The notes under the pieces are model-generated. The model ran no database searches, had not been told where the DNA came from, and was given only the letters and a program-made list of their open reading frames with translations. This document shows, piece after piece, positions 42,056 through 42,449 of a DNA stretch of 64,000 bases. Each line of letters begins with the position of its first letter. Position 1 is the stretch's first letter. Made by a program: the position numbers and the translations under genes. Source of the DNA: Escherichia coli (GTDB lineage Bacteria > Pseudomonadota > Gammaproteobacteria > Enterobacterales > Enterobacteriaceae). The stretch is from the NCBI RefSeq assembly GCF_002854065.1, contig NZ_CP024147.1; one strand, 5' to 3'.

Positions 42056-42137
42056 TCTATCGCCATTGACTTCGCTGTTTTTTCGACCTATTGTAAAGGA
42101 ATGAGGGTAAGGGAGGATTGCTCCTCCCCCTGGTATC

Positions 42138-42197
42138 TTAGTAAGCCGGTAAGCTAATGACTAAGAGTATTACCAGTATGATGACTAGCCTCATCAT
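42138..42197 (-). CDS. Ibs-family type I toxin peptide (19 aa, hydrophobic)
   Basis: Minus-strand ORF ATGATGAGGCTAGTCATCATACTGGTAATACTCTTAGTCATTAGCTTACCGGCTTACTAA translates to MMRLVIILVILLVISLPAY; AAGGAAAG Shine-Dalgarno 5-6 nt upstream. Confidence 0.65.
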   Translation of the reverse strand: MMRLVIILVILLVISLPAY

Positions 42198-42215
42198 AAC
42201 CCTTTCCTTATAAAA

Positions 42216-42247
42216 GGCCCCTTCGTCAGGAGGGGCTTTCCTGTTTT
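42216..42247 (+). terminator. Intrinsic terminator (putative Sib sRNA terminator)
   Basis: GCCCCT-tcgtcagg-AGGGGC stem-loop followed by TTTCCTGTTTT. Confidence 0.55.
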
Positions 42248-42369
42248 AGCGCCCTGCTAAACGCCGCTGACGGTAGCACACGCGGCGATTGCGCGGTTTT
42301 TCATCGCCGCGGATTGCGAGGAGCCTCGTAAAGCTGACGCGATTCAGACGATTCCTTCCGTGTTTCATA

Positions 42370-42386
42370 TTTCCTCCATTTTTCCC
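42370..42386 (+). promoter_or_regulatory. Candidate BaeR-box-like sequence in the mdtA promoter region
   Basis: TTTCCTCCATTTTTCCC lies 64-80 bp upstream of the mdtA start; resembles the TCTCCA-containing BaeR site as I recall it. Confidence 0.25.
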
Positions 42387-42449
42387 GAGCGTTCCGTTAC
42401 TAAACTAGTATCATTTCGTGAAATGATTCAGGACGAGACACCTATAACG

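Follow-up and report, generated by a model that had tools for sequence, protein, structure and literature searches.

Introduction

Does the short intergenic region between yegD and mdtA in an Escherichia coli chromosome (contig NZ_CP024147.1, assembly GCF_002854065.1) contain an intact ibs/sib type I toxin–antitoxin module, in which the gene for a hydrophobic toxin peptide (Ibs) lies inside and antisense to that for a small RNA (Sib), and why is a single copy found there, directly after yegD? A stretch of 64,000 nucleotides of this contig (the window, to which all positions given below refer) was analysed. A preliminary description of the sequence had drawn attention to positions 42056–42449, where it placed a 19-codon hydrophobic reading frame with its own ribosome-binding site on the minus strand, overlapped by a plus-strand region with an intrinsic terminator. 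This span corresponds exactly to the region from the yegD stop codon to the mdtA start codon (ATG at 42450), and each of these elements was recovered. The proposed Ibs/Sib arrangement was borne out by a full-length match to the Rfam family SIB_RNA, by alignment to the K-12 loci, by the RefSeq label of the peptide and by conservation of both the open reading frame (ORF) and the RNA helices at this site in about 30 further species. Judged from its sequence, the locus is very probably an intact ibs/sib type I toxin–antitoxin module of the known enterobacterial family and a Kluyvera-type positional orthologue of sibA/ibsA–sibB/ibsB. With the same high confidence, the locus appears to have reached its E. 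coli lineage as part of a Kluyvera-like replacement, which spans at least 65 kb and stops within mdtA. The family, the mechanism and the exact peptide are already in public annotation, and the locus offers nothing new as a toxin–antitoxin system.

The Sib RNA gene

The Rfam model SIB_RNA (RF00113; family alias QUAD repeat) matched positions 42066–42212 of the plus strand over its full length (model positions 1–147 of 147) with a score of 150.2 bits (E = 9e-33; gathering score 56 bits). This was the only Sib copy found by the Rfam scan within the 64 kb window. A minus-strand match to the same model (27.9 bits, below threshold) was rejected as a palindromic echo of the same repeat and not counted as a second gene, and matches to wcaG and BTnc231 (E of about 0.5–0.75) were set aside as noise. 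The model begins at the promoter; the predicted antisense RNA itself, 139–145 nt in length, was assigned to 42103–42247 (+) by alignment to K-12 sibA–E and RF00113. Aligned with K-12 SibA and SibC as annotated, its 5′ end falls at about 42103; its 3′ end is predicted at 42241–42247, in the T run after the terminator hairpin. The K-12 Sib RNAs measure 136–145 nt.

The predicted sib promoter (42066–42094, +), of the sigma-70 type, consists of a −35 box TTGACT (42066–42071), a 17-nt spacer and a −10 box TATTGT (42089–42094). It was the sole match in a consensus scan of 700 nt, for which 0.2 matches were expected by chance, and the TTGAC of the −35 box is invariant in the alignment of the window, Kluyvera georgiana and K-12 sibA–E. 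The predicted intrinsic terminator (42214–42247, +) comprises an 11-bp stem and a 4-nt loop followed by CCTGTTTT; its hairpin (42214–42239) is G+C-rich, and the corresponding helix columns (126–148 of the alignment) are conserved with compensatory changes. The −35 box begins 10 nt past the yegD stop codon, and the terminator scan found no terminator between that stop codon and the Sib terminator, which therefore probably also ends yegD transcripts. Read-through transcripts from yegD would then carry the Sib sequence as a 3′ untranslated region (UTR).

The minimum free energy (MFE) of the Sib fold was −60.1 kcal/mol, with a z score of −4.54 against shuffled sequences. The predicted fold is closed by stem P1 and has three internal hairpins, the terminator and a stretch that is left unpaired, CCUUUCCUUAUAAAA. 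This stretch is the complement of the ibs Shine–Dalgarno sequence, and the anti-Shine–Dalgarno stretch at 42200–42213 was unpaired both in the MFE fold and in the RNAalifold consensus of 34 Sib homologues. This consensus contained 39 base pairs, 13 of which showed compensatory double changes.

On the opposite strand, the complement of the Sib terminator forms a terminator-like hairpin of its own at 42217–42236 (−), GCCCCTCC-TGAC-GAAGGGGC followed by CTTTTATAAG. It falls in what would be the ibs 5′ UTR, immediately before the Shine–Dalgarno sequence, and could attenuate ibs transcription. The hairpin follows from the palindromic nature of the terminator throughout the family.

The ibs reading frame

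The reverse complement of 42138–42197 reads ATGATGAGGCTAGTCATCATACTGGTAATACTCTTAGTCATTAGCTTACCGGCTTACTAA and translates as MMRLVIILVILLVISLPAY*, an ibs toxin ORF of 19 codons plus stop on the minus strand. Directly 5′ of it on the ibs strand stands AAGGAAAGGGTT, the Shine–Dalgarno-like part of which, AAGGAAAGGG at 42200–42209 (−), constitutes the ribosome-binding site 2 nt upstream of the ATG; across the 12 ibs upstream regions that were compared, this stretch is near-invariant. Identity of the peptide is 79, 78, 74, 63 and 68% to K-12 IbsA, IbsB, IbsC, IbsD and IbsE, respectively, with M1, M2, I6, I7, L11, L12, S15 and Y19 invariant in all of them. It agrees with the family signature MM[KR]x[VL]II..V.LL.IS...Y and with the family pattern of a hydrophobic peptide of 18–19 residues encoded inside and antisense to Sib with a Shine–Dalgarno sequence of its own. 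At the nucleotide level the locus aligns to all five K-12 sib/ibs loci through the −35 box, the start-codon hairpin (ATGATGA...TCATCAT), the Shine–Dalgarno complement and the terminator.

In RefSeq the identical ORF is WP_112919032.1, labelled ‘type I toxin–antitoxin system Ibs family toxin’ by the NCBI pipeline and found in five complete E. coli genomes. The preliminary description had considered peptides of this size to be invisible to ORF callers; this holds for the list of ORFs of at least 20 amino acids, from which the peptide is absent, but not for the curated RefSeq annotation. The Sib RNA gene is without annotation in the RefSeq record of strain 100416, in which the toxin is annotated.

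Conservation of the locus and coding constraint

Among 80 loci retrieved around yegD, 35 contained a sib-like repeat. In Kluyvera, Pseudocitrobacter (one or two copies), many Citrobacter, Trabulsiella odontotermitis, Yokenella and several other Enterobacteriaceae the repeat starts within about 15–80 nt of the end of yegD, with mdtA next in order and without yegIJKL; in the three Escherichia loci yegIJKL come first, and the repeat or repeats follow some 3.5 kb downstream of yegD. Klebsiella, the type strains of Raoultella, Enterobacter, Kosakonia and Lelliottia gave no sib match at this site, which agrees with the Ibs counts of Fozo et al. 2010 (PMC2887945). Pseudocitrobacter faecalis (L014:7430–7862) carries two tandem sib/ibs copies, the peptides of which differ at three of 19 positions.

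A lack of conservation of the peptide ORF at this site in related genomes would, according to the preliminary description, have counted against its reading; the comparison showed the opposite. Each of the 30 copies of 19 codons outside Escherichia (the window included) has an intact ORF of unchanged length and stop codon, one apparent exception being due to an N in an assembly. The five Escherichia copies at the yegD–mdtA site are intact ORFs of 18 codons. Within core codons 5–15 of the orthologous copies, variable sites numbered four, zero and seven at first, second and third codon positions, respectively, and the second positions are fixed as T throughout the hydrophobic core. This three-base periodicity indicates selection on the peptide, beyond that on the antisense RNA alone.

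The codon pattern bears on an explanation in which the plus-strand RNA, as a regulatory small RNA or as the yegD 3′ UTR, is the functional product and the 19-codon frame is incidental. Constraint at the RNA level is real, and the position of sib so close behind yegD, with no terminator between, would allow the RNA to be a yegD 3′ UTR. Pairing within the RNA alone does not predict three-base periodicity or second positions fixed as T. In addition, homologous Ibs peptides of E. coli and Salmonella are toxic on over-expression, and this toxicity needs the ATG (bioRxiv 10.1101/2025.05.26.656083; PMC2887945). We regard an incidental reading frame as very improbable and retain the toxin–antitoxin module as the explanation of the conserved ORF.

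Weighing of an intact module against a silent remnant

Several observations weigh against an intact and active module. On the ibs strand, no consensus promoter was detected by a simple promoter scan, and the candidate extended −10 element there has a weak hexamer (TACCGT). A search of the Ibs peptide against the NCBIfam and PADLOC profiles gave no match even at E ≤ 10, a result that is uninformative for a low-complexity 19-mer; the query was padded with four upstream in-frame residues to 23 amino acids, in view of a minimum length of 20. K-12 ibsB is annotated only as ‘putative’, some members of the family are weak or non-lethal, and loss of SibA is tolerated (PMC2943612). His3, which is required in Salmonella IbsA, is replaced here by Arg3, so that the target of Ibs may differ between paralogues. 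Finally, both ends of Sib, the promoter of ibs and the toxicity of the peptide are predictions for this copy.

These points would suit a decayed or silent remnant, that is, a Sib-like repeat with an unexpressed or non-toxic ORF that was carried passively in imported DNA. Such a remnant could draw on the missing consensus promoter of the ibs strand, on the status of ibsB and on the occurrence of decayed copies at this site elsewhere, an example being the metagenome-assembled genome UBA5654 (L021:7402–7490), in which only a truncated repeat with a disrupted ORF is left. In the present copy, by contrast, the ORF, the Shine–Dalgarno sequence, the Sib promoter, the fold and the terminator are all intact and the score lies far above the Rfam threshold; the length and stop codon of the ORF match those of 30 orthologues under coding-type constraint; and the whole 394-nt intergenic region is 99.7–100% identical in the five complete E. 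coli genomes that carry it, which are independent isolates. A silent remnant was thus judged to be unlikely, and an intact module remains the favoured assignment.

Origin of the locus

The statement in the preliminary description that K-12 has two tandem copies and yegI–yegL in this place proved to be correct, the gene order there being yegD, yegI, yegJ, pphC (yegK), yegL, sibA/ibsA, sibB/ibsB, mdtA. The single copy directly after yegD in the window was likewise confirmed. It could be what remains of the native E. coli pair, either ibsA or ibsB, after deletion of yegI–yegL and one repeat, and copy number does vary in E. coli: strain 104 has yegIJKL and ibsA only. Such a deletion from a K-12-type locus was rejected, being contradicted by the identity profiles and by the neighbouring genes.

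The left neighbour yegD (40688–42055, +; Hsp70-family protein; ORF list and RefSeq) is a Kluyvera-type allele. Its product is 98% identical at the amino-acid level to that of K. georgiana, the best of 254 relatives from one genome per species, and 93–94% identical to those of other Kluyvera; at the nucleotide level the gene is about 77% identical to its K-12 counterpart. The right neighbour mdtA (42450–43703, +) was found to be chimeric by sliding identity to K-12 and K. georgiana: it is Kluyvera-like to about 43150 and E. coli-like (96–100% identical to K-12) from there on. RefSeq labels it here as ‘MdtA/MuxA family’ instead of mdtA. To the right of about 43150 the window, including the rest of mdtA, mdtBCD, baeSR and the genes beyond, is 96–100% identical to K-12, while 42097–43150 is only 55–83% identical to it. 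To the left of 42097 the sequence is 67–80% identical to and collinear with K-12 through the rfb genes, galF, the wca cluster, yegH, asmA, dcd, udk, dgcE, alkA and yegD.

The donor comparison covered 34688–43150, over which the imported DNA is about 93% identical to Kluyvera. Identity to K. georgiana ranged from 88 to 100% in this interval, reached 100% at 42288–42487 and fell to about 80% exactly where the identity to K-12 rises. The copy and both of its flanks are only 55–83% identical to K-12 but show 94–100% identity to K. georgiana, and the 394-nt region is matched at no more than about 80% by other E. coli. Ancestry changes not at the repeat but within mdtA, about 950 bp further to the right. 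These values leave a deletion within E. coli with hardly any credibility. The sequence instead assigns the ibs/sib copy to a Kluyvera-like block, the right junction of which falls within mdtA at a distance of about 950 bp from the toxin gene, and the presence of a single copy without yegI–yegL is explained by the native layout of the donor, yegD–sib/ibs–mdtA.

In strain 100416 (NZ_CM128593.1) the divergent block runs leftwards past the end of the window through an O52-family wzm/wzt O-antigen cluster, gnd, ugd, the his operon, plaP and tsuA, and these genes are approximately 73–86% identical to K-12; this continuation gives the block a length of at least 65 kb. Among 5,426 complete E. coli genomes, an identical chimeric mdtA junction was present in five, the same five that carry the locus (strains 100416, CUWW06, EC24, MEI4BO-21 and SY3626), which indicates one event inherited by one lineage. 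The sources of this lineage include human stool, wastewater, soil and chicken meat. A G+C profile did not separate the imported block from the native part, the mdt genes being equally G+C-rich, and a literature search on Kluyvera-to-E. coli transfer of the O-antigen region surfaced no relevant paper.

The dgcE (yegE) homologue of the divergent region (37421–39760, +) contains an in-frame TAG at codon 571 (39131–39133), which splits it into ORFs of 570 and 201 amino acids. The orthologue in five Kluyvera genomes is a single ORF of 770–782 amino acids. The products in the window and in Kluyvera are far shorter than K-12 DgcE (1105 amino acids) and appear to be without its C-terminal region.

Comparison with known ibs/sib systems

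The locus shares with K-12 sibA/ibsA and sibB/ibsB the site beside mdtA and the opposite-strand, gene-within-gene architecture, and its Sib region is approximately 78% identical to SibA and 74% identical to SibB. It differs from them in having one copy instead of two in tandem and in its left neighbour, which is yegD (co-directional with sib) here and yegL in K-12; the ibs upstream region is unrelated to that of K-12 beyond the repeat. The layout yegD–sib/ibs–mdtA is identical to that in K. georgiana and K. sichuanensis, the 185-nt sib region being 93.5 and 95.1% identical to theirs, respectively. The 150 nt upstream of ibs are identical to those of K. georgiana, and the Ibs peptide is 89% identical to the K. 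georgiana orthologue (two of 19 residues differ, L4S and L16Y). Unlike the Kluyvera loci, the copy resides in an E. coli chromosome.

The predicted Sib architecture (the P1 stem, the internal hairpins, the single-stranded complement of the Shine–Dalgarno sequence and start codon, and the terminator) and the 19-amino-acid toxin class are shared with E. coli sibC/ibsC, the member that has been dissected experimentally. In Salmonella Typhimurium, IbsA/SibA (yqiK–rfaE region) likewise combines a 19-amino-acid toxin produced from an internal ATG with repression by the Sib RNA, and Leu11, which is required in Salmonella IbsA, is present in the Ibs described here. Salmonella IbsA causes growth arrest, binds the a and b subunits of Fo, inhibits the FoF1 ATP synthase and lowers ATP (bioRxiv 10.1101/2025.05.26.656083). 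The ATP-synthase target has been demonstrated for the Salmonella protein only, and its chromosomal site differs from the present one.

Target recognition and proposed mechanism

SibC recognizes ibsC through two independent target-recognition domains (TRDs): TRD1 pairs within the ORF, and TRD2, which needs the P1 stem, pairs over the translation-initiation region (Han et al., PMC2943612). TRD1 comprises SibC nucleotides +46 to +68 and TRD2 nucleotides +99 to +115 in the single-stranded J1/7 region; pairing spreads from the TRDs and the resulting duplex is a substrate of RNase III (PMC2943612). Repression through the TRDs has been demonstrated for SibC and SibD only (PMC2943612). Sib action both blocks ribosome binding and leads to degradation of the mRNA (reviewed in PMC4147584).

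By mapping of alignment columns, the stretch homologous to TRD1 was located at 42144–42166 (+), where it would pair inside the ibs ORF, and that homologous to TRD2 at 42197–42216 (+), where it is complementary to the ibs start codon and Shine–Dalgarno sequence and unpaired in the predicted fold. The TRD1 equivalent has three mismatches to SibA, three to SibB and eight in 23 positions to each of SibC, SibD and SibE; the TRD2 region is one nucleotide off K-12 SibE and two off SibA. As follows from the overlap of the two genes, the Sib RNA here is perfectly complementary to its own ibs mRNA. The sibC locus, which is situated at fau–serA, differs at the eight TRD1 positions and at nine of 20 columns of the TRD2 region, so that cross-repression by SibC is not expected.

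The ibsC mRNA is approximately 159 nt long and starts 18 nt beyond the SibC 3′ end (PMC2943612). For the present copy, a candidate ibs promoter with an extended −10 element TGCTACCGT is proposed at 42270–42278 (−), and its TGnTACCGT is retained in four Kluyvera sequences despite differing flanks. This candidate predicts a transcription start at about 42263, a position in agreement with that of about 42259 expected by homology to the ibsC mRNA; the predicted ibs mRNA would be some 160 nt long and would end near 42103.

Following the E. coli and Salmonella homologues, Sib would be made constitutively and would pair with this mRNA of about 160 nt, beginning at two sites, one in the ORF (the TRD1 equivalent) and one that covers the start codon and Shine–Dalgarno sequence (the TRD2 equivalent). 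Pairing would block ribosome binding and expose the duplex to RNase III, so that no toxin would be made. If Sib dropped or ibs transcription rose, the peptide may be produced and insert into the inner membrane, where it would either collapse the membrane potential or inhibit the Fo part of the ATP synthase; less ATP and growth arrest would be the predicted outcome.

Implications of the imported copy

The ‘missing’ yegI–yegL genes and second repeat should not be taken as the trace of a deletion in E. coli. The locus is the mark of a rare lineage in which his, gnd, ugd, an O52-family O-antigen cluster, the colanic-acid cluster and yegD have been exchanged and in which a chimeric mdtA has been left. 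It bears on inter-genus recombination at the O-antigen hotspot and on the regulation of mdtABCD, which now have a promoter region of foreign origin in front of them.

The BaeR-box consensus of E. coli is TTTTTCTCCATDATTGGC. In the imported region upstream of mdtA at 42250–42449 no match to it was found, even when three mismatches were allowed; K-12 has a BaeR box with one mismatch 54 nt upstream of mdtA. Control of mdtABCD by BaeSR may therefore differ in this lineage.

Four places matching sib were found per record in the carrying genomes. These are presumed to be the present copy and sibC, sibD and sibE, in other words three resident copies that have been kept. It is a speculative idea, which we consider rather doubtful, that the lineage, having swapped its native sibA/ibsA–sibB/ibsB and yegIJKL for one Kluyvera-type module, provides a natural test of cognate specificity. 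If it were true, a resident Sib might cross-silence the foreign toxin, as the TRD2 region lies within one nucleotide of SibE and two of SibA but the TRD1 equivalent is eight off SibC, SibD and SibE, and the foreign Sib might cover no native toxin, with consequences for the tolerance of such imports.

Other features of the window

A 780-bp insertion relative to K-12 was found between yegP and trhP (53995–54776), with ORFs at 54170–54466 and 54468–54764 (+). It encodes a ParD-family antitoxin (TIGR02606, 88 bits), and the adjacent ORF of 98 amino acids, which had no NCBIfam match, is probably a ParE/RelE-type toxin; together they probably form a second toxin–antitoxin pair in the window, of type II.

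Other Rfam matches above threshold were two JUMPstart elements upstream of the operons for O antigen and colanic acid (7716–7754 and 31886–31923, −), an algC RNA motif inside the wca region (17402–17451, −) and the small RNA CyaR (56311–56396, +). The ogrK/PR-X cryptic prophage remnant that lies beside cyaR in K-12 is absent here (56382–56407). The IS3 that splits gatR in K-12 is likewise absent, and an IS5 copy 96% identical to K-12 IS5I is located at 62298–63502 in the gat-operon region, its flanks aligning to K-12 gatA and gatZ.

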